Part shown: in pieces, positions 45,667 to 61,242 of the stretch
How positions within the stretch are numbered: the stretch's first letter is position 1
How the letters are laid out: the number at the start of each line of letters is the position of its first letter
Assembly (NCBI GenBank): GCA_031281485.1
Contig: JAITFI010000101.1
Coordinates: 2,373-66,372 of the forward strand
DNA from: Chitinispirillales bacterium
GTDB lineage: Bacteria; Fibrobacterota; Chitinivibrionia; Chitinivibrionales; Chitinispirillaceae
Length of the DNA: 64,000 nt
Direction of reading: 5' to 3'
Made by a program: the position numbers and the translations under genes
The notes under the pieces: generated by a model
Database searches by the model: none
Told to the model about the DNA's origin: nothing
Seen by the model: only the letters and a program-made list of their open reading frames with translations

Positions 45667-46149
45667 GTGAAAAGACTAACGTTTTTTCTCTTCACGCTGT
45701 TATTCTTTACCGGAACCTCCGTGGCGGGGGTGAAATACGTGGCTGTTGTAGAAACAGAGATAGATGTGCAATCCGGCGCCTCCATCCAACTGAATTCGGC
45801 GGACGTAAGGCAAGTAACGGCGGCGCTTCGCAGGGAAGCCGTTAAAAACCTACCGTCCGGTAAATACAACATCATGACCTCTGAAACCGTTTATGCACAA
45901 GGCAGCGCCACTCTAGAGGCATGCGCCGAGGAAAACTGCGTCATCACCCTCGGAAGTAAAATCGGAGCTGACTACATAGTACGCGGGATTATAAGCAAAC
46001 TACGCACAAAGTTCACTTTGTCGGTCGAAATATACGAAACCGAAAACGGAAACTTGGTCGCTTCGTCCGACCTTGTCAGTTGCGACAATATCGAAGATCT
46101 TGTAAAAGAAGCCGCCGTCACTTGCGCGAATATGTACAATGTGATTTAA
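45667..46149 (+). pseudogene. N-terminal fragment of a secreted protein gene split by element 2
   Basis: Signal peptide plus an N-domain paralogous to 41272-42399. After ..VTCANMY it reads NVI-stop. The homology resumes at 61291. Confidence 0.8.
46123..46139. repeat. attL core of element 2 (17-bp direct repeat)
   Basis: TGCGCGAATATGTACAA, identical to 61282-61298 and in the same reading frame at both sites. Confidence 0.85.
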
Positions 46150-46245
46150 TACTTTTAGCCATTTTAAGTATAAGACAATATCCGCGTTTTTGATACAATT
46201 TAAGCGGTTTTTCACTTTCTAATCTTTCGCCGCTTTTCGTGATTT

Positions 46246-46288
46246 TGACTAACATTTATTTTTATGTTAGTCACACGTTAGTCAAATT
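46246..46288. promoter_or_regulatory. Inverted and direct TTAGTCA repeats (candidate integrase binding sites)
   Basis: TGACTAACAT-8nt-ATGTTAGTCA perfect inverted repeat, then TTAGTCAAATT. A 20/22 match to TTAGTCAAATGTTAGTCAAATT sits at 61221-61242. Confidence 0.5.
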
Positions 46289-46318
46289 CGCCCACTAACG
46301 TAGTAGGAATACCCCTCT

Positions 46319-47536
46319 TTAGACGTCGCCTCCTTCGTCGAGCGTTCGGGCGTCGGGAAGTAGGAGCGTATCAAGAGCGCCGCCCGCCGCCTTGCCTATA
46401 GTGTCGGCGGTGTTTACCATGGCCTCCGCCCTTGCCTCCGCGAAGGAATGCGAGTAGATGTCCAAAGTCATTTGGGCGGAGCCGTGGCCGAGGCTGTCCT
46501 GAACGCTTTTTATATCTGCCCCGCTTTTGATCATTAATGAGGCAAAACTGTGACGCAGTGAGTGTGGGTGAAAGTCGGGGGGGATGTCCGTCCCGGCTAT
46601 TATATTCTTAACCGCCCGCGCGTATGTGCTATTGTGTAGATACCCTCCCTGCGGGTTCGGGAAAACGAGGTTCTTGTCCGTCCACGCTGACCCCATACCG
46701 GCGGCAAGATATTCAACGTCGCGCCGGTGCTGAATTAAGAAACTCAAAAGGAACGGCGCAATTTTCAAAACGCGGAAACTACTCTTGCTCTTAGGCTGGT
46801 TCACGCGCCCCTTGTCGTCAACTCCTTTATTAATATCAAGAAGCCCCTTGTCAAAGTTGATGTCATTCCAAGTCAAAGCGCGTAACTCCCCGGGACGTGC
46901 ACCCGTAAATAACTGCGTCAACAACAACCCGCGCACCCCAATATTATCTATCTTAGCAAGTCCCAAAATAAACGTCTTGACCTGCTCCGGGGACAGTACC
47001 GGCTGCTTTTTGGCTTCTACGCGGAGCGCCTCAACGTCGCTGAGAGGGTTGGCGGCTACCATCTTTTTCTTGACCGCCGCCGTGAACATTGCGCTGAGGT
47101 AAACACGGATATTATTTATAGTCTGCGGGGATAACCCCGCAACGTTACGCAGTTCGGCAAGATATGCGGAAAGCCGCGCCGGAGTCAATTCCCTCAGTCG
47201 CTTACCGCCGAGCTTCGGAAGGATATGACGCGACAACGCGCCGCGCCGTTTTTCCAAAGTGTGAGCTCTCAGCTTATTCGGGGCTATGGTGTCAAAATAC
47301 CACTTCGTCAACTCGTTCAAAGTCATGGAGTCGTCGAAGTTGGCAAGGCCTTTACAGTCATTCTCAAATTTGGCGGCGAACTCCTTAGCCGCTTTTAGGC
47401 CTTGTTTATCGGATAACCCCGGCGGTGGCGTGAAAGTCGTAGTCTTTATGTGCTGACTCCCGTCCGTTTTGCGTCCGAGGCTGACGGTGATGTGATACGT
47501 TTTGCGGTGTTTGCCGCGAACTCTAACGCTGGCCAT
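46319..47536 (-). CDS. int: Tyrosine recombinase / integrase of element 2
   Basis: 405 aa from MASVRVRGK with AAGGGGG SD. GARPGELRAL, HSLRHSFAS and LGHGSAQMTLDIYSH catalytic boxes. Confidence 0.9.
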   Translation of the reverse strand: MASVRVRGKHRKTYHITVSLGRKTDGSQHIKTTTFTPPPGLSDKQGLKAAKEFAAKFENDCKGLANFDDSMTLNELTKWYFDTIAPNKLRAHTLEKRRGALSRHILPKLGGKRLRELTPARLSAYLAELRNVAGLSPQTINNIRVYLSAMFTAAVKKKMVAANPLSDVEALRVEAKKQPVLSPEQVKTFILGLAKIDNIGVRGLLLTQLFTGARPGELRALTWNDINFDKGLLDINKGVDDKGRVNQPKSKSSFRVLKIAPFLLSFLIQHRRDVEYLAAGMGSAWTDKNLVFPNPQGGYLHNSTYARAVKNIIAGTDIPPDFHPHSLRHSFASLMIKSGADIKSVQDSLGHGSAQMTLDIYSHSFAEARAEAMVNTADTIGKAAGGALDTLLLPDARTLDEGGDV

Positions 47537-48500
47537 TTTCGCCCCCTTCTGTTTCGAAGAACCCCGAATCATCATCCGGTAACTTACCCGGTACACCGGA
47601 GAACGCAACTACCGGTAGACCTTTGTCCGGGGTTGGCTTTTGGTCATGAATTTTACCTTCCCAAAAGGCCCTGCGGAGGTCTTTTAATCTATCCCCCAAA
47701 ATACTAAGCAAGACCCCAAGATATTTATCCGGCGTTAAAGTACCTCTTGCATCATCAGCGGTTTTAAAAGTAATATCCCCGCCGGATTTCTCATCATAAT
47801 TCAAAAAACTGTAGAGACGAGACAACAACTCTTCCGATGTCTTACACTTCTCCCGCTCACGCCACGAAAGAAGAATGTTTATTGCGGCTAAACATTTTTT
47901 TTTGCGTTCGGCGTTACAATACAGATCTGCCTCCGTCGCTTCGTGGGAAAATATAGGAATTTCGCCCCTTCCCCCTGGATACTTAGCGCGGATAGCCTCA
48001 AAACGTTCATCCGATACGCCGCAGTCGCAACTGGCAGCCAAAAAATTGAGTGTCACCAAAGAAGCCTCATTCAATCCGAACTTTTCGATAATTTTCCGAG
48101 TTTTGATGTTCCTTGTGGGGTGGTCGGTAAGCCCTACCAAGTAATCGGTTGATACGCCTAGCGTCTTAGCGAGGGTTATTAGGTTCTTTATTGGAATATC
48201 TTTCCCATCACCGCGTTCAATTCTTGCAATGGTACCCTGCGATATTATACCCCCCATTGCGCTGGAGAGCGCTTGCGTTGTCTTATGTCCCGCGTTTATC
48301 CGAGCTTTCTTGACCCTTTTGCCCATTTCTTTGATGCGCTTATTCTCTTCACCCTCTATTGTGTTTTTTTTGAGCGTTCCCGGGGTAGTATAAGTTGAAG
48401 CCGCCTCTAATATGTCCGCCCTGTTTGCCGCGACGTACTCCATTAGGCTTGATTTAGGCTCTTTGGGGCGCTTTTTGTTTATATCGTGAATATTTTCCAT
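47523..48500 (-). CDS. XRE-family repressor with C-terminal extension
   Basis: Start MENIHD. HTH: QALSSAMGGIISQGTIARIERG...NLITLAKTLGVSTDYLVG. Overlaps the int start by 14 nt. Confidence 0.75.
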   Translation of the reverse strand: MENIHDINKKRPKEPKSSLMEYVAANRADILEAASTYTTPGTLKKNTIEGEENKRIKEMGKRVKKARINAGHKTTQALSSAMGGIISQGTIARIERGDGKDIPIKNLITLAKTLGVSTDYLVGLTDHPTRNIKTRKIIEKFGLNEASLVTLNFLAASCDCGVSDERFEAIRAKYPGGRGEIPIFSHEATEADLYCNAERKKKCLAAINILLSWREREKCKTSEELLSRLYSFLNYDEKSGGDITFKTADDARGTLTPDKYLGVLLSILGDRLKDLRRAFWEGKIHDQKPTPDKGLPVVAFSGVPGKLPDDDSGFFETEGGENGQR

Positions 48501-48549
48501 AAACACTACCTCATTTATTGATAATATATGATACATCAAAAACCGCTTG

Positions 48550-48577
48550 TTTACAGGTAATTATACACTTATATTTA
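48550..48577 (+). promoter_or_regulatory. Rightward promoter candidate in the repressor/cro intergenic region
   Basis: TTTACA-16nt-TATTTA, followed by TTGATATTGATAATAT direct half-sites. Confidence 0.45.
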
Positions 48578-48664
48578 TGGTGTTGATATTGATAATATAA
48601 ATAATGGCGGCGAAAGAATCAAAATAAAAATAACTTTTTTTAAACTTAAAAAAGGGAGGGAGTT

Positions 48665-48874
48665 ATGGTTCTTGTTAAGGATTTGTTACGTCGGGCAAGG
48701 GTAAGGGTTTGTTCTTATGAGGATGCGATGGCGACGGGGTTGGCAGGACCCATATCTGCTGGGACAGCGACCAAACAACCGAACTTGAGGACGAGTTCCT
48801 TGTATCAGCGAGGGGGGAGATTTGTACGTTCCTATCCATGGAGCGAGATACCGAGAAACAGCTTGCAATGCTGA
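48665..48874 (+). pseudogene. Frameshifted paralog of the cro-like gene at 49197
   Basis: The first 20 aa (MVLVKDLLRRARV..) match 49197-49475. The homology then continues in another frame (..WDSDQTTELEDEFL..ERDTE..) to a stop at about 48920. Confidence 0.5.
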
Positions 48875-48983
48875 CAGAATGGCTAATCCAAAGGCTGGAA
48901 GACTTTGAATGTGAAGAGTAAAATCACCTAGGGCGGTTAAGTGCCGCCCCTATTACCACATTAACAAAAAAAGGAGGGGTTTT

Positions 48984-49142
48984 ATGACGGAAACCCAAAG
49001 AGAGGCGATTCGGGCGGCAAGGAACGAGTATTCAAGGAGGTACCGACGCGAAAACCCGGACAAGATCAGAGCCGCAACCGAGCGTTACTGGTTACGTAAG
49101 GCGGCCCGTATGCAGGCCGAAAAAGAGGGGGAATCTCAGTAA
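48984..49142 (+). CDS. Small basic protein (52 aa)
   Basis: AAGGAGGGG SD. MTETQREAIRAARNEYSRRYRRENPDKIRAATERYWLRKAA. Confidence 0.5.
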   Translation: MTETQREAIRAARNEYSRRYRRENPDKIRAATERYWLRKAARMQAEKEGESQ

Positions 49143-49196
49143 ACAACCGGGGCGGGGTTCGCCCAAAGTATTATAAACCATCAAATAGGAGGTAGT

Positions 49197-49475
49197 ATGA
49201 AGTTAGTAAGAGAGCTATTACGCAGGGCGCGTGTCGAGACTTATTCCAAAGACACGGGGAAAGAAGTATACGAAATGTGTCTCCGGTGGGATAAAAGCCG
49301 CCTAAGCAAGATAGAAAACGAGTTCCTTCAGTGTATGGAGGGGGACGTTCTCTCTTTTTTGTTGACGGAACGCGACGCCGAGGCGTACGAGGCGACGCTG
49401 ACGCGTGGCCTACTTGACCTGTTGGGGGACAACGATGTTGAGCGGTGCCAAGTACAACCGAATCGGGGCGACTAA
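49197..49475 (+). CDS. Cro-like small HTH protein
   Basis: 92 aa, AGGAGG SD. ..WDKSRLSKIENE.. resembles the recognition-helix region of XRE proteins. Confidence 0.5.
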   Translation: MKLVRELLRRARVETYSKDTGKEVYEMCLRWDKSRLSKIENEFLQCMEGDVLSFLLTERDAEAYEATLTRGLLDLLGDNDVERCQVQPNRGD

Positions 49476-49527
49476 ACGTCGCCCCTTTATATCCATATTA
49501 GTTGATAAACCAAGAAAGGATTTGATC

Positions 49528-49758
49528 ATGGAAACGAATGAAAACGCTGACGGCGTTTATACGCTCCCAAAAGCGGCGGAGGCTTGCAAGCGGGAAGGGC
49601 TGAATTTGAGTTACTCTCAACTCCGTGGGTTGGTGGCGTCGGGGAGGCTAAAATCTTTTAAAAACGGGCGGAGGTTCTATGTAAGTATGGCCTTACTGAG
49701 GGCGGCGCTGAAAGACCCGAACTCAACGCTCTGGGATAGTATTGATGGTGAAAACTAA
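49528..49758 (+). CDS. xis: Excisionase-family DNA-binding protein
   Basis: 76 aa from METNEN. YTLPKAAEACKREGLNLSYSQLRGLVASGRLKSFKNGRRFYV is excisionase-type HTH. Confidence 0.6.
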   Translation: METNENADGVYTLPKAAEACKREGLNLSYSQLRGLVASGRLKSFKNGRRFYVSMALLRAALKDPNSTLWDSIDGEN

Positions 49759-49817
49759 AAGGCCTACCCGCGCCGCCAGCGTGGATAGGCTAAACACCAA
49801 AAACGAAAGGATATATT

Positions 49818-50447
49818 TTGAGCTACAGTAATAATATAATATCCGGCAATGCGCCGAGTCAAGGATATTTTTATAAATATTCGCCCCGCCGTCAACGTAT
49901 CCGGCTGGGGGTGCAGTCCGCACCCTCTCCCGTTCCCGTCAAGTACAATGTCGCCAAGTTACGCGCTGAGGCGGACACTAACGGCGAGGCCGTCCCACTT
50001 CCGCTGGTCGTCTTTGAGAATTGGAGCGAGGTTAGAGCGGCTATAAATACCCTTTTGGACGTGCCAGCAATAGCTGTTTGTGAGGGTTATTTCAAGAGCT
50101 TCGCTTCTTATGCGTTGGGCTTCGTTTCCGCGCTGGTAGAGTTGCGCCGTTCCGGTCTTAGGGTTCGCCCGCTGTTATTGATTCCCACTAACGACGCTCT
50201 GGGCTATGGCCTCCGGGATATGGGCGAGCTTGCCGCCCTTCTGCGCAATGCCGGATTCGTCTTTACGTGGACAAACGCCCCCGACGCGCCGCATACCCTT
50301 TATTTATATCGGGATACGTATTACGGCGACTTTGCGGAAATGTTCAGTCAAGAACCTCAACTTGCGGGGAGGCGGTTATTGGACGGGATATTTGACGCGC
50401 TGAACTTCATAACCAATAGGGGGCGCGTCTATGGTACACATCTTTAG
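49818..50447 (+). CDS. Hypothetical protein
   Basis: 209 aa, TTG start with GAAAGGA SD. Confidence 0.45.
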   Translation: MSYSNNIISGNAPSQGYFYKYSPRRQRIRLGVQSAPSPVPVKYNVAKLRAEADTNGEAVPLPLVVFENWSEVRAAINTLLDVPAIAVCEGYFKSFASYALGFVSALVELRRSGLRVRPLLLIPTNDALGYGLRDMGELAALLRNAGFVFTWTNAPDAPHTLYLYRDTYYGDFAEMFSQEPQLAGRRLLDGIFDALNFITNRGRVYGTHL

Positions 50448-50619
50448 GCACGGGGAAGTTCGCCCAGACAAAAGAAGCCCTGAATATCGGGAACTACGTC
50501 GTATAGCCGCGCAGCACATCCAAAAAGGGCGAGGCGTGTCCGAGTTCGTGGCCGCAATGGGACGGCACGACGAGCCGGTATTTGAGGCGTTTATAGACGA
50601 AAACGGAGGCCGGTTATGA
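50431..50619 (+). CDS. Hypothetical protein
   Basis: 62 aa, overlapping both neighbours (ATGA with the downstream gene). Confidence 0.4.
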   Translation: MVHIFRHGEVRPDKRSPEYRELRRIAAQHIQKGRGVSEFVAAMGRHDEPVFEAFIDENGGRL

Positions 50620-51833
50620 AATGCAATGAAGCCGAATATTTAGAACTGTTTAACGCCGCGTTCCGTTACATAAATTTGACGGACGGCAGGGCGCTGTTCA
50701 TATCGGAGATGACCGAGAAGAATTACAGTTCCGAGGCCATAAGCCGCGCTTTCGATAATGCAACAAGGAGCGACACGCCGGACACGTACACGGGTACGGA
50801 GGCCGCCGCCGACGTGCGCCGCGTACAAACGAAGCGCCTTTCCGACGTTACACGAAAAGAGCGTAGTTGGCTATGGGGGAACGTGCTTTTGAGGGGCGAG
50901 TTAAACTCCATACAAGGCGTCCCCGGAGTCGGAAAAAGTTTTATCATTGCCGCAATAGCCGCCGCTGTAAGCAGTGGCGGCAAGCTGCCCACGGTATCGG
51001 CCAAAGAGGAATATGCGACAAGCGCAATGAGTGTAGTCGAGCTGGGCAAAGTTGCAATACTGACCGACGAAGACGACCCGTCCGTGATTGCTGAGAGGAT
51101 CGAGACTTTAGGCGGCGACCTAAACGAGGTTATAATTATCGATGAAGACGAGAGTATTCCGCATATCCAGTCTGACGAATTGGAGACTCTATTTGACGAT
51201 TTCAAACCCGCCCTACTCATTTACGACACACTACAAGCCTCTTTACCGCCCGATATTAACATAAACGCGGCAAACGAGGCGCGGAGCGCGTTCGGGCGGG
51301 TGCTTAGGCTGGCAAGGAAACATAATACTTGCGTCCTTTTCATTCAACATATCAACAAGAAAAGCTCCCATGAGGGCGGCGGTCATAGTGTCTTTTATGG
51401 CGTGGGTTCCGGTGCCATAAACGGCCTATTCCGTACCGTGTGGACATTGGGTCGCGTGCTCGATGACGAAGGCAAAGAGACTTCCGGCCGCGCTCTCATT
51501 GTAAGTAAAAGTAATTACGCAAAGGGACAAATGCCCGCCGTCCGCTTTTCGCTGACGTTCGCGGGCGGGTTCCAGTGGGGTGAGGTAGATTATGATATTT
51601 CAACCCATGACTTATTCGGAAAGCGTGCTGTTGGCCGGCCTAACCAGTGTAATGCGGCAAAGGCTTTTATTGAAGAATATTTGAGTGGTGGAATGAAACC
51701 CGCTGAAGAGGTAAAAGCTGTTGCCGAGCGCAATGGTATCAAGAAAGACCTATTCTATAAGGCGGCAAGGGAACTGGGCGGCAAGTACGAGCGCGTCGGC
51801 GGAACGTCATTTTTGCGCATAGGGGGATGTTGA
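50616..51833 (+). CDS. RecA-like (AAA_25/RepA-type) replication ATPase
   Basis: 405 aa. Walker A GVPGVGKS, Walker B LLIYD, and a QHINKK sensor-like segment. Confidence 0.7.
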   Translation: MKCNEAEYLELFNAAFRYINLTDGRALFISEMTEKNYSSEAISRAFDNATRSDTPDTYTGTEAAADVRRVQTKRLSDVTRKERSWLWGNVLLRGELNSIQGVPGVGKSFIIAAIAAAVSSGGKLPTVSAKEEYATSAMSVVELGKVAILTDEDDPSVIAERIETLGGDLNEVIIIDEDESIPHIQSDELETLFDDFKPALLIYDTLQASLPPDININAANEARSAFGRVLRLARKHNTCVLFIQHINKKSSHEGGGHSVFYGVGSGAINGLFRTVWTLGRVLDDEGKETSGRALIVSKSNYAKGQMPAVRFSLTFAGGFQWGEVDYDISTHDLFGKRAVGRPNQCNAAKAFIEEYLSGGMKPAEEVKAVAERNGIKKDLFYKAARELGGKYERVGGTSFLRIGGC

Positions 51834-51847
51834 CAAAATACAGATAT

Positions 51848-51975
51848 TTTATCAACGGTAAAATGAATTTATCAACTGGGGAAAAGTGGCGTTTTTAGTG
51901 TAATTAAGCGGTTTTTGGGGGGGGTAGATAGCTGTTTATGTTGTTGTTGATAAACCTACCGTATAGTTTATCAAC
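51848..51975. repeat. Iteron cluster (candidate replication origin of element 2)
   Basis: TTTATCAAC at 51848, 51868 and 51967, plus inverted GTTGATAAA at 51946. Immediately downstream of the ATPase gene. Another GTTGATAAA lies at 49501. Confidence 0.5.
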
Positions 51976-52037
51976 AACGGGCAAAGCGGGATTTGAGGCA
52001 GTTTGATATATAAACCTTAACAGTAGGAGGAAGTGCA

Positions 52038-55000
52038 ATGATAAACAGCATAATGTGCGTGTACATCGTCTTAGACGGCGATTCCGCGGAAAACATCGGG
52101 CAAGAAGACCCGTCTATTGGGCTATTTAAGGTCCTAAACACGGTCACAAATTCGCAAATGTACGCGCTGGTCTACGCGGAAGACGACTTGAGCCGGTACG
52201 GCGCAGGGGCAATAAAACACGCTACCGGATTCTTGGCGTCGAACGGGATAGGCGAAATATCCGAAGCCGGAAACTTTAAGTCTGGTGGCGGAAATGTGCA
52301 GACAAGGCAAACCAACATCACAATCAACAATACAAACGGGCTGACGGACTCGCTAAACCGTCTCGGCATTAGGCTTATCGGCCAAAGAGTATACATAGTA
52401 GAGTATAGTGACGGCGTTGCGAACCCGCTATATAGCGGCATTGTTGACGCGCTGACTTGGAACGAGACCACGATTCAGCTGGCTACGCTACCGAATACCG
52501 GATTAACGAGGCGGTCAAATGTTATGATTGACGGGCTACCGGTAACGCTTGGTAATTGCCGGTTGGCGGAGCACCTACGGACGGGAGAGCCAGTATATCT
52601 TAACTATTCCGACTTTGTGGCTAGCAATGACGCGGACGAGGATTTTATCATATCTAAGATACAAGGCGACATAGCAGGCAGTAGTTTGGCGCATAAGATA
52701 TTGATAGAATTAGGGGACAGCATAACCATCACCGAAAACGACATATATGACAGGCTACTTGAAAGGTATGGATTTAAACGCGATAGGTCTGTAAAGGCAA
52801 ATGATATAGCTGTTTTTGCCGTGATAAAAGAGAGCAATTGGGGCGTTCCGCTTCGTACGTATGATCCGTTTACCTTAGATCTCGTGGATTGGACTGAAGA
52901 CACAGGCGATCCCGGTATGCCGTATCGAGACCACCGGAGCGTATTTTTAGTAATACACTTGGAGAGAGAACTGTCGTTTGGAGATGTGCCGCCATACACG
53001 GTAAGACTTGTTATCCCCAACCTGCAATTTATGGCGGACGGCTGGCCAAATGCAAGCGTAGACACGCCGACACCAAAACAGTCATCGCCAAATATAGACT
53101 TGTACGGCGGCGACGGCGATATGTATGAGGTAGCAAACAGCTTAGTATTACCCATAAGACCGTATGGCCGCGCTATCGACTATGATAAAACGCGGAGAGA
53201 TATTAGCCACAGCATATATCCGGCAAAGATCGAAATTATGCCATTTGAGCTGTCAGACTCTACCCTCGCGACGATAGCCTCGTATCTCCCAGTAACACTA
53301 CCCCAAGATGTCAGAGGCAACACCGACATTGACCTGCTAGGGGAAAGGGGCGCCACGGGCCAAAGGCTATTCCTAATTGTTGATGATCGTATACTGCTAT
53401 TTCCGAACACAGCCATAAATTCTTGGACCGATGAATGGACAAGTGGCGGCAGGCGGCTAGAGTACCTAAACAATGGCCTGTATTGGGATACGGTGCCCGA
53501 CGATTCACAGGTTACAGTTTACCCTCCGGCGTGGGCATATCCTCCGAGATATGGCCCCGGCCCGGATAGGAACGAACTGCGCAGGGGTGGCGGATCAGAT
53601 GTTGATCTTTCTACGTACGCGTGGCTTTCGTTCAGGTCTGTAAACAGTTCCGGTGGCGGTTCCACCGGAAACTACGTCTGCGCCATAATCGTGGGTCTCC
53701 CAGCCATCCCAAATGGGTATAGCCACTACAAGGACGCGTTTTTGCATACGTCAATGGTGCTTAGATATACGACAGTAGATTCGCACGGTGGCCCTAAATT
53801 AGACGACATGGCGATAATGGCGATTACAAGAGGCGACACCAACAGCCGCACAATGCAGTCATGGCCGGACAGGATATTCTTAGGGCAGGGCGGTACCGTA
53901 CACATGGATAACCACATCGCCACGGCGCTTGACGGAAGTGGCCGCAACATATACGACCTTGAGGACCAGCGCGCGGAGTTTATCGCGAATGTCCTTAAAG
54001 ATGGTGATAGGCTAATTCGATTGACCGGCTACGAGAATTTCAAAATAGACGGAATAGATTTTCTGTCGGATCGCCGTAGGCAAATGGCAATTATATTTAA
54101 CGCTCCCAATGTGGACCCGGCGCCTCCGTACGATATGACGTTCGATCTCCGAATACACGAGATAGGTGTACTCTTCAAAGCCGACATAAACATCAGTGAA
54201 AGGATAAAATACCGCTCATCCGGGCGAACGTTCGGCGGTATAAACAGCGCCTACTCTGACATGGTATGGGAAAATAGGAAAGTTGCGCACAATCATATAT
54301 CTAATCCCATAGACGCCGTCGAACACTTATTACGTTTGTCAAATTGGGCTGAAAATGATCCGGGCCTATTGTATGCGCCGAATCCGGGCAAGCAATATGC
54401 GGCTGAACGCGCTACGCTAATTGACACCGAATCTTTCGACAGCGCAACGCTGAACCAAATTAGACAGCTATCAATGGCCGGACAAGTACTTGACGAGGGC
54501 AAGGCATATAACGACGCGATAGCCGATGATATATGCAAAGACTTTTACATCGCGAGAAAGCATAAACTCTTGACAGGCGTGGCTGTTGGAGGCAACACAT
54601 TAAACTGGATCGGAAACTTTGCGCCGCCCTTTGAATCGGTTGGCAGTTTAGACACGCCGCCGCCCGAAGGTGAGATACCGGTTGTTACGCTGAAAGAATC
54701 GCAGCTGGTGACGATAAAAGAGCCGTCGTCGCGGGATATATGGTGTCAGCCGATAGTCAAATATTTCCATGTGAACGGGATCGGATACACTAAATCAATG
54801 GCCGTGACCGGCATAGTAACAAATACGGCGTGGAACGCAGATCTTACCCCCGGGTTTGAGCCTTTGGACGGAGAGAGAGTGTGGAATAAATGTAAAACCC
54901 TATTCCTGAAATACGGAAACTTTGTTGAGATGCCTGAATCAGCGCAGGGGCAAGATTGGATTCGTGATTATAGCACGGCGCTTTGGAAAATAAACAAGAT

Positions 55001-55307
55001 CATAGACTGGCAACAAAACTCGCGGACTCAAATCTCGGTTCCGTGGTCAATAGGCCGGACGTGGAGAGTTGGGACGCACGTATATATATCGTACAAGCAC
55101 GTAAGGGACGGGGACAAATTGCTTTGCGTGTGCGAGAGCGTGAGAAAATCTAAGTACACCAATAAAGTTACCTGTGACCTAATAATCCTTGATGATGTTG
55201 CCAGTGCGTTCGGCAGCTACTCAACGATAGAAGAAATAGGTAGTGCAAACATAGAAATAGATGAAAACGCAATGCGAGACACTGAAATCGCGGAGGGACA
55301 AACATGA
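52038..55307 (+). CDS. Large (1,089 aa) phage tail/host-specificity-like protein
   Basis: AGGAGG SD. No enzymatic motifs. The segment ..NPIDAVEHLLRL...IDTESFD.. resembles tail-tip/host-specificity proteins. The call is low-confidence. Confidence 0.4.
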   Translation: MINSIMCVYIVLDGDSAENIGQEDPSIGLFKVLNTVTNSQMYALVYAEDDLSRYGAGAIKHATGFLASNGIGEISEAGNFKSGGGNVQTRQTNITINNTNGLTDSLNRLGIRLIGQRVYIVEYSDGVANPLYSGIVDALTWNETTIQLATLPNTGLTRRSNVMIDGLPVTLGNCRLAEHLRTGEPVYLNYSDFVASNDADEDFIISKIQGDIAGSSLAHKILIELGDSITITENDIYDRLLERYGFKRDRSVKANDIAVFAVIKESNWGVPLRTYDPFTLDLVDWTEDTGDPGMPYRDHRSVFLVIHLERELSFGDVPPYTVRLVIPNLQFMADGWPNASVDTPTPKQSSPNIDLYGGDGDMYEVANSLVLPIRPYGRAIDYDKTRRDISHSIYPAKIEIMPFELSDSTLATIASYLPVTLPQDVRGNTDIDLLGERGATGQRLFLIVDDRILLFPNTAINSWTDEWTSGGRRLEYLNNGLYWDTVPDDSQVTVYPPAWAYPPRYGPGPDRNELRRGGGSDVDLSTYAWLSFRSVNSSGGGSTGNYVCAIIVGLPAIPNGYSHYKDAFLHTSMVLRYTTVDSHGGPKLDDMAIMAITRGDTNSRTMQSWPDRIFLGQGGTVHMDNHIATALDGSGRNIYDLEDQRAEFIANVLKDGDRLIRLTGYENFKIDGIDFLSDRRRQMAIIFNAPNVDPAPPYDMTFDLRIHEIGVLFKADINISERIKYRSSGRTFGGINSAYSDMVWENRKVAHNHISNPIDAVEHLLRLSNWAENDPGLLYAPNPGKQYAAERATLIDTESFDSATLNQIRQLSMAGQVLDEGKAYNDAIADDICKDFYIARKHKLLTGVAVGGNTLNWIGNFAPPFESVGSLDTPPPEGEIPVVTLKESQLVTIKEPSSRDIWCQPIVKYFHVNGIGYTKSMAVTGIVTNTAWNADLTPGFEPLDGERVWNKCKTLFLKYGNFVEMPESAQGQDWIRDYSTALWKINKIIDWQQNSRTQISVPWSIGRTWRVGTHVYISYKHVRDGDKLLCVCESVRKSKYTNKVTCDLIILDDVASAFGSYSTIEEIGSANIEIDENAMRDTEIAEGQT

Positions 55308-55450
55308 ATACGATAAGAGCAGATGTTTTGCGCGTGTTGGATACGAAACCAGCATTTCAGGGCGGAATCCTCAAAGACCGGATGTTCGGGTTTACACTTG
55401 ACACGCACGAGTTTGTTGCAATGACAAACGGGGGTGCCTATGACGAATAA
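55304..55450 (+). CDS. Hypothetical small protein (48 aa)
   Basis: ATGA overlap with the preceding stop. Below the ORF-track cutoff. Confidence 0.35.
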   Translation: MNTIRADVLRVLDTKPAFQGGILKDRMFGFTLDTHEFVAMTNGGAYDE

Positions 55451-55826
55451 GTCAAAGATACCCGTTCCAAGCGAGAGTAAAGAGCAGATCGCCCTATTCT
55501 ACTGGGCGAGGCTGAACGTGTCCAGTATACCGGAGTTAGGGCTCTTATTTAGTATTCCCAACGGCGGATATAGGACGCCATCCACCGCTGCCAGGATGAA
55601 AGCGGAGGGCGAACGAGCAGGGGTGCCGGACTGTTTCCTACCGATCCCGAGAGGGAGGTATTCGGGGCTATGGATCGAACTTAAAAGACTTCGCGGTAGC
55701 AAAATCGACCCACTACAAAAGTGGTGGGCTGAACGGTTATCCGCGCAGGGCTATGCTCACGTTTTCGCTTATGGCTGGGAGGAGGCAGTCAAGGCTATTG
55801 AAACGTATTTGAGCGGTCAATTTTGA
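55440..55826 (+). CDS. VRR-NUC domain nuclease
   Basis: ESKEQIALFYWA...IPNGGYR...GVPDCFLPIP...LWIELKRLRGSKIDPLQKWW matches the VRR-NUC (PD-(D/E)xK) pattern. Confidence 0.75.
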   Translation: MTNKSKIPVPSESKEQIALFYWARLNVSSIPELGLLFSIPNGGYRTPSTAARMKAEGERAGVPDCFLPIPRGRYSGLWIELKRLRGSKIDPLQKWWAERLSAQGYAHVFAYGWEEAVKAIETYLSGQF

Positions 55827-55954
55827 CCGCTGGGAAAACACGAGAGTGTTCACGTCAACGAGAGAGGCGACAAAACAGTATTTTCTTGTTGCGAAAAACA
55901 CGGAAGTTTAGTATATTAACTATAATCACAATCTAACCGTTAGGAGGTAGTAGA

Positions 55955-56149
55955 ATGATTGCATTACCGGAAACGGATTTTCAAAAGCAATTTCGCGAGC
56001 GCAAAGAACGCGAGGAGGCCGAGAAGGAACGCCTTCACATGGTGATTTTAGGGAAGACGTATAAACGTTTTCTTTCGCTGGGCAGGAATCCGGTAACGGG
56101 GAAACTCCTTAAGGATTCCCCGTATTATGGCACACTGGGGAGGTCGTGA
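55955..56149 (+). CDS. Hypothetical protein
   Basis: 64 aa, AGGAGG SD. Confidence 0.5.
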   Translation: MIALPETDFQKQFRERKEREEAEKERLHMVILGKTYKRFLSLGRNPVTGKLLKDSPYYGTLGRS

Positions 56150-56151
56150 TC

Positions 56152-56439
56152 ATGGTGACGGCTGACGAACTCCAAAGGCAAAAGGAATCCCTTACACCCC
56201 AAATAAAGGCAAGGCTTGCCACTTTGGAGGCCGAGCGCCGGGCAGATAGGGAGAGAGAAGAGGCACGGACGGCGCGACGCGCTGCGGAGCTACGGGATAA
56301 TGAGCTGAACCGGCATAGGGCACCCTTTAGCGTGAGCAAGCACCCTATACCGGCCGGGTACGTCGCGACGGGAAACCGTCCGCGCAGTTACCCTATACCG
56401 CCCGGATACGTCGCGGTAAATAACAACAACCAAAACTAA
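56152..56439 (+). CDS. Hypothetical coiled-coil protein
   Basis: ATG at 56152 has better SD spacing than the GTG at 56146. Confidence 0.45.
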   Translation: MVTADELQRQKESLTPQIKARLATLEAERRADREREEARTARRAAELRDNELNRHRAPFSVSKHPIPAGYVATGNRPRSYPIPPGYVAVNNNNQN

Positions 56440-56456
56440 TTGAAAGGTGGTAAATT

Positions 56457-56696
56457 ATGAAAAAGATAAAAATGCGTAAACCCCATGATTACGCGACGGT
56501 GTCGATTAAAAAGGACGGCGAGCTATACCGCCGCGCCGTCGCGGGAAGTGTCCCCGCAATTATACTTTACCTATGCGCCAACGTTCCCGAAAGGTGGAAG
56601 TTAGACCTTGAAATATTGCCGGTATTGATACGCATGGAGCGGGACAGGTGGAAGATCACCGCGGGCGGATATACCTACAACGCGGCGGCAGCATGA
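56457..56696 (+). CDS. Hypothetical protein
   Basis: 79 aa, GAAAGGTGG SD. Its stop overlaps the terS ATG as ATGA. Confidence 0.45.
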   Translation: MKKIKMRKPHDYATVSIKKDGELYRRAVAGSVPAIILYLCANVPERWKLDLEILPVLIRMERDRWKITAGGYTYNAAAA

Positions 56697-57178
56697 TGGA
56701 GACTACGACGCAACCTGGAACGGACGCTCAGTCTGGCAAGAGGGCGCGGGGGGCTACGGTCTACCGCGCCGAATATGCGGATATTGCCGAGGCTGCCGCT
56801 GCTGAAATGGGCGCGACGGACGCGAATTTGGCGCGAGTCTTCAAAGTAACTCCAAGAGCGATTTTACAGTGGAAGAAAAAACATCCGGCCTTCGCTGAAG
56901 CTCTTGCGAGGGGCAAAGAGGAAGCCGACGCGAAGGTCGTAAAGTGTCTATATCAACGGGCGACGGGGTATACGTATACCGAGAAGGCGGTCGTAACATT
57001 CCCCGATGGTGGGCAGCAGGTAACAGAACACGAAAAACACGCGCCGCCCAACGTGGACGCCCAAGTCAAATGGCTTTACAATCGACAGCCTAAGCGGTGG
57101 CGACCGCAACCTCTTGAAAATCAAGACGAGGACACGCTACCGTCCGTAGTGATCACATACGAGGAAGACAAGGCATAA
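56693..57178 (+). CDS. terS: Terminase small subunit
   Basis: 161 aa. HTH LARVFKVTPRAILQWKKKHPAFAEALARGKEEADAKV..CLYQRATGY is typical of small terminases. It lies directly upstream of terL. Confidence 0.7.
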   Translation: MMETTTQPGTDAQSGKRARGATVYRAEYADIAEAAAAEMGATDANLARVFKVTPRAILQWKKKHPAFAEALARGKEEADAKVVKCLYQRATGYTYTEKAVVTFPDGGQQVTEHEKHAPPNVDAQVKWLYNRQPKRWRPQPLENQDEDTLPSVVITYEEDKA

Positions 57179-57179
57179 G

Positions 57180-58445
57180 ATGGACAACACAGAAACAACA
57201 ATAAAAATCGTCTTGAGCCGTCCGCAAATGCAATTCAAGCGACTCGACAAGAAATACCGCGCTTTCGTGGGCGGCTACCGTTCCGGCAAAACATGGGTGG
57301 GGTGTACAAATATTTGTGACCATATCGCGAAATATCCGAGAGTGAGCGCCGGTTACTTTGTCCCCACATATCCTATGCTCGAAGATATTTTCTATCCGAC
57401 AATCGAGAGCGTCGCGCCGTTATTCGGTTTTAAAGTCGAGATTAACCGCTCAAAGAAGCGCGTGTTTTTCTTCCGGTACGGTAAATATTACGGGGAATGT
57501 ATCTGCCGCTCAATGGAACAGCCGGAGCGCATAGTAGGCTTTAAAATTGGATATGCATTGATAGACGAGATAGACTTATTGCCGAAACCCAAGGCGGACA
57601 TTGTCTGGAACAAGGTCGCAGCGCGCATGAGCTATGCCATTGACGGCTTGCCCAACCGCATAGACGTAACGACAACGCCGGAGGGCTACGGGTTCGCGTA
57701 TAATAAATTCGTTGCAAATAAAACCGACTCCTACGGAATCGTCCACGCCTCAACACGCGACAATGCAAAGAACTTACCGCCCGACTATATCCCGTCGCTC
57801 ATTGAAACGTACCCGTCGTATTTAATCGACGCGTATCTCGAAGGCCGCTTCGTCAATTTGACAGCCGGTACGGTTTATCACGCCTACAAGCGCGACGTGC
57901 ACGATAGTAATGAGGAAATCCGCCCCGGTGATAGGTTGTTCATCGGTCAAGACTTCAACGTAGGCAAGATGTGTTCAGCGGTATTGGTGCAACGCAATAA
58001 CGTATTTCACGTTGTCGATCAACTAACCGGCGTTATGGACACGCCCGCGCTATGCAAATTGTTGACCGAGAGATATAGGGGACACGAGATATTGATTTAT
58101 CCCGACGCGACAGGCGGAGCGCGAAAAACCGTGAACTCGTCAATGTCAGACATTATGCTTTTGAAGAGCGCGGGTTTTATCGTGCGGGTTAATAATTCTA
58201 ACCCTGCGGTACGCGATCGAGTAGTCTCTATAAATAATGCGTTTGAAAGGGGGTTATTGCGCGTTAATGCGCGGAAGTGTCGCGAGGTGTCGAGTTGTTT
58301 AGAAAAACAAGCGTATGATACAAATGGCGAACCGGACAAGGCCGCGGGCTTCGACCACATGAATGACGCGCTGGGTTATTTTGTCACCCATGAATTACCC
58401 GTGCGAAGGCCTGCGCTGATAGTAGGCCTTCGCACGGGCTCTTGA
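57180..58445 (+). CDS. terL: Terminase large subunit
   Basis: 421 aa. Walker A GGYRSGKT, Walker B-like ALIDEID. The C-terminal nuclease half carries acidic motifs. Confidence 0.8.
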   Translation: MDNTETTIKIVLSRPQMQFKRLDKKYRAFVGGYRSGKTWVGCTNICDHIAKYPRVSAGYFVPTYPMLEDIFYPTIESVAPLFGFKVEINRSKKRVFFFRYGKYYGECICRSMEQPERIVGFKIGYALIDEIDLLPKPKADIVWNKVAARMSYAIDGLPNRIDVTTTPEGYGFAYNKFVANKTDSYGIVHASTRDNAKNLPPDYIPSLIETYPSYLIDAYLEGRFVNLTAGTVYHAYKRDVHDSNEEIRPGDRLFIGQDFNVGKMCSAVLVQRNNVFHVVDQLTGVMDTPALCKLLTERYRGHEILIYPDATGGARKTVNSSMSDIMLLKSAGFIVRVNNSNPAVRDRVVSINNAFERGLLRVNARKCREVSSCLEKQAYDTNGEPDKAAGFDHMNDALGYFVTHELPVRRPALIVGLRTGS

Positions 58446-58557
58446 TGTGGAAAACGAAAGGCGCAAGGAGTGATCCGGCTTTATTGGTTGACCAGCCTAA
58501 TCCCGGTTTGGCCCCCTTGGGGGCCGCGCCTCCTACCTTATTCTGCCATTGCTTGCC

Positions 58558-59037
58558 CTATAGCTGTCGGATAAAGTCTTTGTTACAAAAATAGGTTCTT
58601 GCGGCGCCCCATGTGCCGCCCTCATACTTTACTCTTGCGGATGTAAAAACAAGCGTGTCGTTGCCACGTAATTCGTATCTCCATGACCAATTTATCGTCC
58701 CTCGTGACTCTATGCGGTTTGTAGCAAATATCTCATTACCCGAAGTGTACCAGCTGTCCATTATATTGCTTTGATTAACCACCGTAGTTTCTGGCCAGTC
58801 TTCGTTATTTACGTAGTCAAGCCCGCTCCCGGTCAATACAATGCTGTTGCCATTAAACTCGTATGTCAGGTCAATACTTGATCTTATTTGGTTGCAACTG
58901 CCCTCGCATAGGTGGTCAACACCAGCAATAAACCACTTTCCGTATAGGCGGCTATCTTGGGCCTGTCCCTCTTTAGGGTCAGTTCCGCAACCGGAGAGGA
59001 GGGCGAAGAGGGCGGCTAGGAGTAGTAGGCGTTTCAT
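58558..59037 (-). CDS. Lipoprotein
   Basis: 159 aa. Signal peptide with lipobox LLSGC. Confidence 0.6.
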   Translation of the reverse strand: MKRLLLLAALFALLSGCGTDPKEGQAQDSRLYGKWFIAGVDHLCEGSCNQIRSSIDLTYEFNGNSIVLTGSGLDYVNNEDWPETTVVNQSNIMDSWYTSGNEIFATNRIESRGTINWSWRYELRGNDTLVFTSARVKYEGGTWGAARTYFCNKDFIRQL

Positions 59038-59072
59038 TTTGGGTCCTTTCCTATAACCTATTTAACTATTTG

Positions 59073-59417
59073 TCATAGTTCTCTTTGCTGCCCAAGCCCA
59101 GAAACAAGGGTATCTACCGCCTGTTTGGCTTCCGGCGCGAGCGTCCTATAAAAGCCGACAAGGGAGGCCTCGGCGGGTGAGTGTATGGCGTCGGGTATTG
59201 CGTGTTCGGATAGTACAGCCGCCACCCGCTTCATTAATTTGGTCGAGGGTGCCCGCTCCGACCGCTCTATTTGCGAGACATACTGCCAAGTAACACCGAG
59301 GGCGTCGGCGAATTGTTGTTGCGTCAAACCGCACCGGCGCCGGGCGTCGCGGACGATTTCGGCGGCTGCGCCGTCGATGGTTGGCTTGTTCGGGGCTTGC
59401 CTATTTTCTGTGTCCAT
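59073..59417 (-). CDS. XRE-family HTH regulator
   Basis: 114 aa. LTQQQFADALGVTWQYVSQIERSERAPS. Confidence 0.75.
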   Translation of the reverse strand: MDTENRQAPNKPTIDGAAAEIVRDARRRCGLTQQQFADALGVTWQYVSQIERSERAPSTKLMKRVAAVLSEHAIPDAIHSPAEASLVGFYRTLAPEAKQAVDTLVSGLGQQREL

Positions 59418-59438
59418 ATCTTAAATATATATTGTTTT

Positions 59439-59544
59439 CTTGCCTTTTTACAACAAAATCTCACAATAATTTATATATTTTTACTACTTGCTTTAAAAAA
59501 GAATAAAAATAAAAATAAATTTGCTTGCTTTTTACAAACAAAAA
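59439..59544. promoter_or_regulatory. Divergent promoter/operator region with repeated CTTGC-TTTTTACAA-CAAAA boxes
   Basis: cttgcctttttacaacaaaa (59439-59458) and cttgctttttacaaacaaaaa (59524-59544), plus a partial third copy. AT-rich, with TATATT/TATTAT boxes. Confidence 0.45.
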
Positions 59545-59622
59545 GGTTATATTATAGGGGTAGGGCGGGGAAACAGCCCGATGACGAAATAAAACACATT
59601 TTTAGAAAGGGAGGGGCATGAC

Positions 59623-59907
59623 ATGGGCAGCGACAGCGAAACCTCGGTCGTCTATGACGATGACCTACTTGAAATCATTGCCGATATGCTCGATCTATCA
59701 ATCTGTATTAAGGTCTTTTTTGAGGGATTAGACCCTGACGACTATTCCTACGAGAGACGTCAAGCGGCAGCAAAAATGATAGGTCTTGCGGCAACGAGTG
59801 TCCTGACCGTGACGCGCTCGCGCGCGCTTGGGCAAGCTCTGCCCAGGCGCGCGCGGAGCTTGCAAAACTACAGAAAGATATTTCTGACACCAGCAAAGCC
59901 ACCGTAA
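59623..59907 (+). CDS. Hypothetical protein, possibly frameshifted
   Basis: GGGAGGGG SD. From about 59820 a more protein-like reading continues in another frame to 60040, with the switch at a CGCGCGCGC run. Confidence 0.35.
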   Translation: MGSDSETSVVYDDDLLEIIADMLDLSICIKVFFEGLDPDDYSYERRQAAAKMIGLAATSVLTVTRSRALGQALPRRARSLQNYRKIFLTPAKPP

Positions 59908-60169
59908 AGGCCGCTGAGAGGTTGGTCGATAGAATAGAAACGGCGGCCATATTCGGGACGGTGCCCCACAAAGGAGCCAAAGAGGCGCTTGTCTTGCCCA
60001 TTATCATGATCGCCGGAGGGGCACCCCCTAAAACTGGGTAAAGAAAGCCATTGCAAGGCAGGCGGCGGAAGGTCTAAACCGGGCGAGACTTCAACGGCAG
60101 GGGACGGTCAAAAAAAAGACTGCGGACGGGGCGCAAAGATATTATATTTCATAGGGAGGGCAGGCCGAT

Positions 60170-60607
60170 ATGTTTAGGATATGTTTTGATAATTGTTGCA
60201 ATAGCCGGTTATTCGACGACGAAACAAAGCCGAATATAAAGGCGGAGGCCGACGCAATACGGCGCATTATTAACAACAAGCGGCGCGGCGGTTACGTCAT
60301 TATCGGCAGTTTTGCCGGATACGCTGAAATTAACAAAATATCCGACGACAAAGCGCGGCAGGCCGCAAAACAGAAATATGAAGGGTATATTGACGACTGG
60401 ATTAAAAAGGCCGCCCCGATAATGGCAAGGGCGCGGAAGTTAGAAGCGTATGGGCTTATCGGATGGGACGCCGCCCACCTTGCGGCGGCTGAGGCGGCGC
60501 GGGCAGATTATCTTTTGACGGTGGACAAAGATTTTTTAAAGGTATGTTTACGGTCGAATTTTACAAAGGTTAAAGTTATAAACCCTATAGACTTTGAAAG
60601 GCGGTAA
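60170..60607 (+). CDS. PIN-domain-like protein
   Basis: 145 aa, AGGGAGGG SD. N-terminal CFDN acidic residue. The C-terminal GWDAAHLAAAEAARADYLLTVDKDF is PIN-typical. Confidence 0.55.
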   Translation: MFRICFDNCCNSRLFDDETKPNIKAEADAIRRIINNKRRGGYVIIGSFAGYAEINKISDDKARQAAKQKYEGYIDDWIKKAAPIMARARKLEAYGLIGWDAAHLAAAEAARADYLLTVDKDFLKVCLRSNFTKVKVINPIDFERR

Positions 60608-60610
60608 ACT

Positions 60611-60820
60611 ATGACAACGGCAAAGCGCGGTAATTGGATTGAAGAATGGCGCGAGGCGCGGAAAAATACCACACTGGACGAAATCGAAGCCATAGCCGAT
60701 AGGTTAGAGGCCGAACCCACGGAGCGGCGGGGGCTGACGCCGGAAGAGTTAGATGAAAAATACGGGCGGATAGAAGAGCCGCAACCAACCACGCGCCGCG
60801 CTGAACTGGTGGGCGCGTAA
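60611..60820 (+). CDS. Hypothetical acidic protein
   Basis: 69 aa, starting 3 nt after the PIN stop. Confidence 0.45.
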   Translation: MTTAKRGNWIEEWREARKNTTLDEIEAIADRLEAEPTERRGLTPEELDEKYGRIEEPQPTTRRAELVGA

Positions 60821-60879
60821 CTGACCGCCACCCGCCCATGAACAACGGGTGGGACAAAATACCCATTAAGGAGTAGAGT

Positions 60880-61140
60880 ATGGTCACGATAGACGCAGGC
60901 GAGTTGATACGGTGGGCAAAGACCGAAATGAAAAAAGCCATTGCCAAAATGGACGCGGCAGACGCTACATTGGACGCGGCGCGGGAGATGTGCACCGCAA
61001 TGATAGAAGCGGCGACGCCGATGTATATTCGCATGGGCGATAGACTCAAGGCCGCAGGATACCTTCCTACTGATCGAAGAGGTAATTTGACATATTGGGA
61101 ACCCCGGAAAACCGTTCACCCCAACGTATGCGCGAAATAG
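60880..61140 (+). CDS. Hypothetical protein
   Basis: 86 aa, AAGGAG SD. Confidence 0.5.
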   Translation: MVTIDAGELIRWAKTEMKKAIAKMDAADATLDAAREMCTAMIEAATPMYIRMGDRLKAAGYLPTDRRGNLTYWEPRKTVHPNVCAK

Positions 61141-61220
61141 GAAGCGCCCACCCACCCCCCCTTTTTCCGTCCCCGATGTGTCGTATCTTTTCGTAATTTT
61201 CTGTAGTTTTTATTTTAAAA

Positions 61221-61242
61221 TTAGTCAAATGTTAGTCAAATT
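61221..61242. promoter_or_regulatory. TTAGTCA direct repeats near the right end of element 2
   Basis: TTAGTCAAATGTTAGTCAAATT, a 20/22 match to 46267-46288. Confidence 0.5.

Follow-up and report, generated by a model that had tools for sequence, protein, structure and literature searches.

A capsid-less integrative element with its own terminase genes and a predicted tail-tip hub in a Chitinispirillales genome resembles phage satellites

Results

Gene content of element 2

A stretch of 64,000 nucleotides from a Chitinispirillales bacterium (positions 2,373 to 66,372 of contig JAITFI010000101.1, GenBank assembly GCA_031281485.1; in the following called the window, with positions counted from its first letter) contains, besides a prophage (prophage 1), a smaller mobile element termed element 2. 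Judged from the spacing of two 17-bp repeats, element 2 is a discrete, integrated unit of 15,159 bp (46123-61298). Its gene list was checked by a map of the open reading frames (ORFs) and by Pfam and PHROG scans of the window. The gene order proposed in an original prediction, which had been made from the sequence alone, was recovered, although its cro-like and PIN-like assignments could not be confirmed, and the integrase, XRE repressor, replicase, iterons, VRR-NUC nuclease, terS and terL were all found where they had been placed; the extent had to be revised, as the element reaches past 58445, the end of terL, to 61298. With moderate confidence, we favor the explanation that element 2 is a satellite-like element which captured a terL and a hub gene and would be mobilized by a helper phage similar to the one on contig L005 (L numbers denote the sequences used for comparison). 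The central part of element 2 comprises the following features:

50616-51833, plus strand: AAA_25 (RepA/DnaB-like) replicase-helicase (AAA_25, E-value 9e-19; phrog_239, primase/helicase)
51848-51975, no strand: iteron cluster, four copies of TTTATCAAC, one of them inverted
52038-55307, plus strand: 1,089-aa protein, predicted tail-tip hub of the pb3/gpJ/Tal class (AlphaFold2 (AF2) model with Foldseek, homologue context)
55434-55826, plus strand: VRR-NUC nuclease (phrog_824, E-value 3e-44; PF08774)
55955-56696, plus strand: ORFs of 64, 97 and 79 aa that accompany terS
56648-57178, plus strand: terS (phrog_309, E-value 2e-36), with a probable start at 56693
57180-58445, plus strand: terL, full length (Terminase_6N and 6C)

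No ORF of element 2 matched capsid, portal, protease, tail-tube, tape measure or lysis families in the Pfam and PHROG scans, which is in line with the predicted lack of portal, protease and capsid genes. Neither holin or endolysin genes nor genes for conjugation or mobilization were detected by the same scans. With the exception of the 1,089-aa protein, all ORFs of the element without an assignment are at most 209 aa long.

The tail-tip hub gene

The 1,089-aa protein found no match in the phage collection, Pfam, PHROGs and the PDB sequences, and a word-indexed search with it returned a single relative. An exhaustive HMMER search yielded about 300 relatives of approximately 1,000-1,200 aa, some of which match PHROG tail-fiber families; the closest share residues 1-185 and 662-1089, while the middle part is variable. 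An AF2 model built on 40 homologues (pLDDT 75, pTM 0.77) was matched by Foldseek to the pb3 baseplate hub of DT57C and T5 (E-value 1e-9) and to the lambda tail tip (E-value 3e-5), as well as to the Chi and p2 tail tips and to Tal proteins. Against BFVD, E-values down to 1e-20 were obtained, with Tail-3, tip attachment protein J and tail protein as the named matches. Homologues of the protein are encoded 3′ of a tape measure protein (TMP) gene and a gene in the Dit position in L001, L085, L126 and L127; the L128 homologue is preceded by a Dit-position ORF and, upstream, a partial ORF. On the basis of its modeled fold, the 1,089-aa protein is predicted to be a tail-tip hub and not a hidden head protein. 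A hidden capsid or portal, for which a fold check had been proposed along with the original prediction, was rejected, as the only large protein in question folds as a tail hub and the remaining ones are too small.

Two further large ORFs were tried as relatives of the hub and rejected by hhalign, namely the 1,042-aa ORF of L121, whose product is a tape measure protein, and the 541-aa ORF of L130. In L001, three GLUG-repeat genes with type IX secretion system (T9SS) sorting domains (5785-6033, 7315-7563 and 9138-9287) lie downstream of the hub homologue P0002, and behind each of them the final 50-85 residues of the hub are repeated, giving a cassette-like arrangement.

The position of the hub gene can be compared with that of the corresponding region in relatives of the backbone. 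Nucleotide homology between the window and L109 covers the replicase gene and the origin and extends up to the ribosome-binding region just 5′ of 52038. A 49-aa acidic ORF follows the origin in L109 and L106, and the ribosome-binding region in front of this ORF in L109 matches the one in front of the hub gene in the window. Homology to L106 picks up again in the VRR-NUC gene, past the hub. From this arrangement, the hub gene appears to be an insertion at the site of the 49-aa ORF of the relatives, a place where the remnant of a tail-module deletion would not be located.

The terminase genes

TerS of element 2 is 63-65% identical to the TerS proteins of L129 and L130, two small elements that lack terL, and 36-47% identical to phage TerS, with no relative above 47% identity among the IMG/VR phage contigs. 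The ORFs of 64 and 79 aa have counterparts with 62-68% identity ahead of terS in L129 and L130, with their order preserved; for the 97-aa ORF, the match to these contigs spans only 19 residues. Since TerS of element 2 clusters with the TerS proteins of terL-less small elements, the terS module appears to belong to small elements as well. Within the 97-aa ORF, a 26-nt sequence is duplicated in tandem at 56342-56415 (copies 92% identical and 48 nt apart), which leads to a repeated PIPxGYVA peptide. At the C-terminus, the L129 and L130 proteins extend about 20 aa beyond TerS of element 2, whose gene is followed by the start of terL 2 nt later; the putative junction with the captured terL was placed at this end of terS.

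TerL is 87-88% identical to proteins of the IMG/VR contigs L005 and L006 and 53% identical to those of Kagunavirus-type siphoviruses of 41-46 kb. In the alignment, the motifs GGYRSGKT, LIDEID and TTT are retained; we interpret them as Walker A, Walker B and coupling motifs, and certain acidic positions as the presumable nuclease residues. The ratio of nonsynonymous to synonymous substitution rates (dN/dS) versus L005 and L006 is 0.07-0.08 at dS ~1, indicating strong purifying selection.

In L005 and L006, terL is followed by ORFs that correspond by size and position to a portal (487 aa) and a major capsid protein (MCP, 342-345 aa). Further on, contigs of this type contain an ORF of tape measure size, the Dit position, and then a hub of the same family with 1,248-1,287 aa; the Dit-position ORF comprises 302 aa in L126 and 514 aa in L127. 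The L020/L085 contig has the same order, with about 14.8 kb separating terL and hub. The order in phages of the donor type is hence terL, portal, MCP, TMP, Dit, hub, and the recurrence of this order of gene families in the TerL lineage implies that the lineage from which terL was obtained also carries this hub family. The hub of element 2 itself is about 30% identical to the hubs of the L005/L006 lineage and closer (55%) to the hub of another phage. L005 and L006 are the only relatives with head-tail genes after terL, and nothing else is closely shared with them (terS 43-47%, hub approximately 30%); they have no backbone gene in common with element 2.

Replication, integration and regulation genes

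The left part of element 2 contains the following genes:

46319-47608, minus strand: tyrosine integrase (Phage_integrase, E-value 7e-25, and SAM-like N-terminal domains)
47523-48539, minus strand: XRE-family repressor candidate, 338 aa (HTH_3, E-value 1e-8; phrog_8, phrog_4 and phrog_3 repressor families)
48665-49475, plus strand: ORFs of 69, 52 and 92 aa, transcribed away from the repressor gene
49405-49758, plus strand: HTH_17 protein (PF12728, E-value 6.7e-4, below the Pfam cut-off/gathering score)
49818-50447, plus strand: 209-aa replication accessory ORF with equally placed counterparts in L106, L109 and L111 (35-47% identity)
50431-50619, plus strand: 62-aa ORF conserved with the replicase, 42-53% identical in L106, L109 and L111

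Homologues of the AAA_25 replicase with 64-86% identity are present in four metagenome contigs (L111 86%, L106 79%, L109 64%), and a pattern scan of IMG/VR found no relatives of it. The iteron motif TTTATCAAC occurs four times within 51848-51975, compared with 0.59 expected occurrences across the whole 64-kb window, and the motif or a variant of it (TTTAGCAAC in L106) is located directly 3′ of the replicase gene in L109, L111 and L106 as well. The iteron cluster is therefore a candidate origin of replication. VRR-NUC is likewise a conserved backbone gene (53-57% identity in L106 and L111). The 209-aa ORF is apparently a degenerate Toprim/primase relative: its version in L111 has a weak match to Toprim_3, the ORF at this position in L110 carries Zn_ribbon_DnaG with just 24% similarity to the protein of the window, and the DxD motif reads TND in the latter.

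The integrase probably starts at the ATG at 47536 and shows 52-55% identity to its counterparts in L111 and L106. The C-terminal domain of the XRE protein, comprising about 200 aa, had no other domain match at the thresholds used. By position only, the three small ORFs divergent from the repressor might be regulators; the 69- and 92-aa ORFs are weak paralogues, and the 92-aa ORF had no family match in a scan from which the 69- and 52-aa ORFs were left out. The HTH_17 protein, 72% identical in L109, is a candidate for an excisionase (AlpA/xis-like), an assignment to be taken as a lead and not as a result. A scan for promoters and terminators gave counts near those of shuffled sequence.

Attachment sites and the split target gene

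At its ends, element 2 is bordered by these features:

45667-46149, plus strand: left half of the split target gene, signal peptide and lipoprotein N-domain, stopping 3 codons past the attachment (att) core
46123-46139, no strand: attL core TGCGCGAATATGTACAA, exact 17-nt direct repeat of 61282-61298
46208-46288, no strand: left inner arm repeat, 81 nt, 72% identical to 61162-61242, with GTTAGTCA motifs
61162-61242, no strand: right inner arm repeat, partner of 46208-46288
61282-61298, no strand: attR core, exact copy of 46123-46139
61291-61905, plus strand: right half of the split target gene, Fib_succ_major (PF09603, E-value 6e-30), no signal peptide of its own

All four exact copies of GTTAGTCA in the window fall inside the two inner arm repeats, and these motifs are candidate arm sites of the integrase. 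The layout of core plus inner arm is shared by L111. The left att copy coincides with the 3′ terminal part of the lipoprotein ORF (160 aa), and the start of the Fib_succ_major ORF (204 aa) falls within the right copy. When the halves are joined across the core (right part 61299-61905), they are in frame and encode a 359-aa protein, of which residues 24-359 align to a single ORF of Fibrobacter sp. UBA7003 (L087) with 36% identity. The N-domain of this fusion is 74% identical to a protein from a Chitinispirillales metagenome-assembled genome (MAG) that extends well beyond the junction, and homologues of the N-domain are 369-406 aa long. The in-frame fusion and the matching single ORFs imply that a host gene was split by element 2, and that this host is probably a member of the Fibrobacterota. 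The predicted attP consists of ...TTACAAAA followed by the core TGCGCGAATATGTACAA and TGTGATTT..., whereas the predicted attB has ...GTCACT in front of TGCGCGAATATGTACAA and AACGTTTG... after it. At 41272-42399, a 375-aa ORF shares 65% identity in its N-domain with the left half of the split gene; this paralogue suggests that the 41-46 kb region is host DNA with a family of paralogous lipoproteins.

A family of small capsid-less elements

The closest relatives of the backbone are small elements. L111 represents a complete element of 11,669 bp between 75-nt repeats, with host genes past the right repeat. Its left part contains an integrase (52%), a repressor, a Toprim-like ORF, the 62-aa ORF, the AAA_25 replicase (86%) and four AATTTATCAAC iterons, which are followed on the right by VRR-NUC (57%), TerS (phrog_83), an XRE protein, an HK97 gp10-like protein and the ORFs of 145 aa (76%) and 69 aa (70%). 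L106 is laid out in the same way; both elements are approximately 11-12 kb in size and contain neither terL nor a hub nor a capsid-sized ORF. Besides terS, the only recognizable virion gene in them is the gp10-like neck/tail-completion ORF (L106, 14763-15161; L111, 10537-10935). Different members of the family may thus target different steps of assembly. A more distant short island in an Oscillospiraceae MAG (L110) combines an integrase, an HTH protein, a primase-like ORF, AAA_25 and VRR-NUC.

L129 and L130 have a different backbone, with terS followed by an integrase, a DnaG-type primase, a DnaB-type helicase, HTH_17 and ParA, and lack terL. In L130 (Ga0170664_101522; approximately 10,642 bp), the contig ends overlap by 22 nt and the 69-aa ORF reads across the junction, which indicates that the unit of about 10.6 kb is circular or tandemly repeated. 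The 541-aa ORF of this contig (122-1747) matched nothing in PHROGs, the PDB sequences and the hub profile. In addition, L121 (Ga0123353_10010125) contains a short island (2724-11095) with an integrase and a primase/AAA_25 fusion (39% to the replicase of the window), and with a lone tape measure gene (1,042 aa, phrog_1535, E-value 3e-124) that is followed by a sigma-70-like gene and accompanied by neither Dit nor hub. Possibly, this island is another small element with just one tail gene.

Concerning co-occurrence, sample 3300028327 contains L005, L006, L106 and L111, and sample 3300014756 contains L128 and L130, i.e., small elements are found in the same samples as phages bearing related TerL and hub proteins. 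The original prediction had named a backbone with full head and tail genes in related genomes as the sign of a simple deletion; no such genome was seen, as L106, L111, L109, L129 and L130 are all small and capsid-less. Taken together, the gene comparisons suggest a family of integrative, capsid-less elements of 10.6-15.2 kb, from metagenomes rich in Fibrobacterota, that have their own replication genes and terS and that swap modules, and its architecture and ecology appear to match those of phage satellites. Element 2 is alone in this family in having terL and hub added to the backbone.

Right arm of element 2 and prophage 1

Past terL, the element continues with the following genes:

58558-59037, minus strand: lipoprotein (lipobox LLSGC), accessory gene, no family match
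59073-59417, minus strand: second XRE regulator (HTH_3, E-value 2e-12), 42% identical to an ORF upstream of terS in L005
59623-61140, plus strand: right arm ORFs of 94, 145, 69 and 86 aa, with the 145/69 pair as the most conserved module of the family

The 145-aa ORF is 76-86% and the 69-aa ORF 70-75% identical in L111 and L130 (in L130, 86% and 75%). The former is also 47% identical in L106, and L129 ends within its first 13 residues; the 86-aa ORF is found in L129 and L130 as well. A PIN fold of the 145-aa protein was not confirmed, as the single-sequence AF2 model reached a pLDDT of 48 and the profile match to PDB an E-value of 0.6.

Prophage 1 (about 11.6-40.2 kb) encodes portal, protease, MCP and TMP. 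The layout of its part at 20035-40191 is unusual: the endolysin gene directly precedes the portal-to-tail block on the plus strand, and the large terminase gene and that of a probable small subunit (39727-40191) are located on the minus strand downstream of the tail genes. By position, a 350-aa minus-strand ORF next to a tRNA-Phe (11388-12720) probably marks the integrase and attachment site of this prophage. The TerL of prophage 1 belongs to phrog_9 (632 aa; 37908-39806, minus strand), in agreement with the earlier view that a prophage with a different terminase is not an obvious helper. Prophage 1 contains no paralogue of element 2 genes, and its TerL and portal are of other families; it was therefore rejected as a helper or source of paralogues and is not the cognate helper. 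In the first 16 kb of the window (1-16000), the GC content is strongly heterogeneous, with 0.65-0.68 at 8-10 kb, where a 1,659-aa minus-strand ORF is located, versus 0.37-0.43 at 13-16 kb.

Discussion

Interpretation of element 2

The proposal that element 2 resembles a satellite more than a prophage is supported by the small size and the lack of capsid genes in the relatives of both its backbone and its terS. The remark that a complete terminase plus a giant tail protein would be an unusual satellite repertoire applies as well. In the scheme that we infer for helper dependence, packaging and the role of the hub, the 338-aa XRE protein would silence the element until a helper protein or another signal relieves repression, whereupon the integrase and the HTH_17 protein would excise the element and the replicase would amplify it from the iterons. 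Its own TerS-TerL would then package the DNA into procapsids of an L005-like helper, probably as multimers, and the hub would be built into helper tails, where it might alter adsorption specificity or disturb tail assembly of the helper. Multimer packaging is plausible but speculative: three copies of 15.16 kb amount to 45.5 kb and four copies of 11.67 kb, as in L111, to 46.7 kb, while the phages with related TerL are 41-46 kb in size. Element 2 is probably still mobile. The more far-reaching version of this scheme holds that element 2 is a tail-retargeting satellite which, with its own terminase and hub but no head genes, packages itself into helper procapsids without the helper terminase and re-arms helper tails with another host-specificity protein, and that it belongs to a previously undescribed module-swapping family, probably of termite-gut Fibrobacterota. 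We put this version forward tentatively and regard it, taken as a whole, as rather doubtful.

Several observations weigh against a satellite mobilized by a helper. The combination of hub and terL on this backbone is known from one element only, so that selection for the combination is unsupported. The sole other copy, L004, is identical at 100% of its nucleotides and was rejected as an independent second copy. A degenerate pattern of attB, attP, attL and attR found no match in the JGI metagenomes, and an excised, circular or packaged form of element 2 itself was not found; neither was a helper of the L005 type within the 64-kb window. The primase-like 209-aa ORF looks degenerate, and the ParA of some family members would allow a plasmid-like life without any helper phage. 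Finally, tail genes are described as forbidden in current satellite models, being almost never found in satellites (PMC10085698).

Element 2 could also be a dead-end chimera of a small integrative element of this family and an L005-like phage, in which terL and hub are non-functional passengers, while integration and replication may persist. That terL plus hub was seen once, that the relatives do without either gene, and that neither a Dit nor a TMP partner for the hub is encoded on the element are all consistent with such an origin. The same applies to the shortened C-terminus of TerS, a part of the protein that often contacts TerL. However, the two acquired genes joined the element cleanly, each at a gene boundary, with undisturbed reading frames and a good ribosome-binding site; the hub is complete in length and has kept its conserved N- and C-terminal domains, and the dN/dS of TerL (0.08 at dS ~1) argues for long-term function. 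We consider a dead-end chimera possible, though on the whole unlikely.

Element 2 might also be a plasmid-like integrative element that is independent of phages, with its TerS-like and related proteins acting as DNA-binding regulators or anti-phage decoys, the latter for instance as a defense that disturbs terminase or tail assembly. The ParA genes of L129 and L130 and the apparently circular form of the latter would fit this possibility, and island-encoded interference with tail assembly is known (PMC11364771) and satellites often double as defense islands (PMC10085698). On the other hand, a scan of element 2 for PADLOC defense families returned generic helix-turn-helix (HTH) matches only, conjugation and mobilization genes were not detected, and a full catalytic TerL under purifying selection exceeds the needs of a decoy, which makes a phage-independent element improbable.

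That a complete temperate siphovirus of the L005 kind was reduced to element 2 by deletion of its head and tail genes is very improbable, even though the relatives with 88% identical TerL are complete phage contigs with portal and capsid genes after terL and a hub of the same family closing the tail module, and even though the coding strand flips right after terL in element 2: a single deletion cannot place the hub upstream of terS-terL between origin and VRR-NUC, the relatives of the backbone are complete small elements with att repeats of their own and no structural module, the backbone is absent from L005 and L006 and from the IMG/VR pattern scan, TerS groups with small-element and not with phage TerS, and terL is under strong purifying selection. 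Simple deletion from a prophage thus does not appear to explain the gene arrangement of element 2.

If element 2 is indeed a satellite mobilized by a helper, current rules for finding satellites would be too narrow, as the finders reject carriers of tail genes and read terL as indicating a capsid-forming island. The adsorption end of the virion would then be a further possible target of takeover by satellites, and the range of satellites would extend to Fibrobacterota, a phylum absent from the satellite hosts given in the satellite literature cited here. By encoding a hub, a satellite would have a direct effect on which hosts gene transfer reaches within a gut community. Siblings with terS only, with terS and a neck protein, or with terS, terL and hub allow the gain of hijacking modules to be studied.

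Comparison with known systems

The 1,089-aa protein has the same predicted fold class as pb3 of T5 and DT57C, gpJ of lambda and lactococcal Tal, and its homologues occupy the hub position in the order TMP-Dit-hub. In contrast to siphovirus hubs, it is encoded alone between origin and VRR-NUC, with no TMP, Dit or tail tube genes and no Pfam or PHROG match of its own. The Streptomyces satellite MiniFlayer likewise has both terminase subunits and a tail-fiber/adsorption gene, but it has its own portal and capsid, lacks integrase and replication genes, and its fiber binds the neck of the helper (PMC10690885).

With the PICMIs (phage-inducible chromosomal minimalist islands) of Vibrionaceae and the marine VEIMEs (virion-encapsidated integrative mobile elements), element 2 has in common that it is small and integrative, encodes a replicase and a terS homologue, and lacks capsid genes. 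VEIMEs occur in virions as concatemers (PMC9618062), and PICMIs do not remodel capsids (PMC10803314); among the relatives of element 2, the circular contig L130 hints at a free form. Both depend on the TerL of the helper (PMC9618062; PMC10803314), and none has been described with a tail hub.

The similarity to phage-inducible chromosomal islands (PICIs), such as the SaPIs and the PICIs of E. coli and Pasteurella, includes the size of about 15 kb, the integrase at one end, the flanking att repeats, a repressor divergent from small regulator genes (a putative switch), a replicase gene directly followed by iterons, an own terS, and the lack of capsid, portal and lysis genes. Differences are the complete terL, which is outside the PICI core, and the tail hub, since tail and holin genes are forbidden in the SatelliteFinder models of PICIs and capsid-forming PICIs (cfPICIs) (PMC10085698). 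Furthermore, no gene for capsid-size redirection was recognized in element 2, and its host belongs to the Fibrobacterota and not to Firmicutes or Proteobacteria. The combination of terS and terL with a PICI-like left arm is reminiscent of cfPICIs, for which terL is a core gene (PMC10085698), whereas the MCP, portal, protease and head-tail connectors that define cfPICIs are missing from element 2. While cfPICIs have no tail genes and steal tails, element 2 carries a predicted tail hub and no head genes and therefore displays the reverse repertoire.

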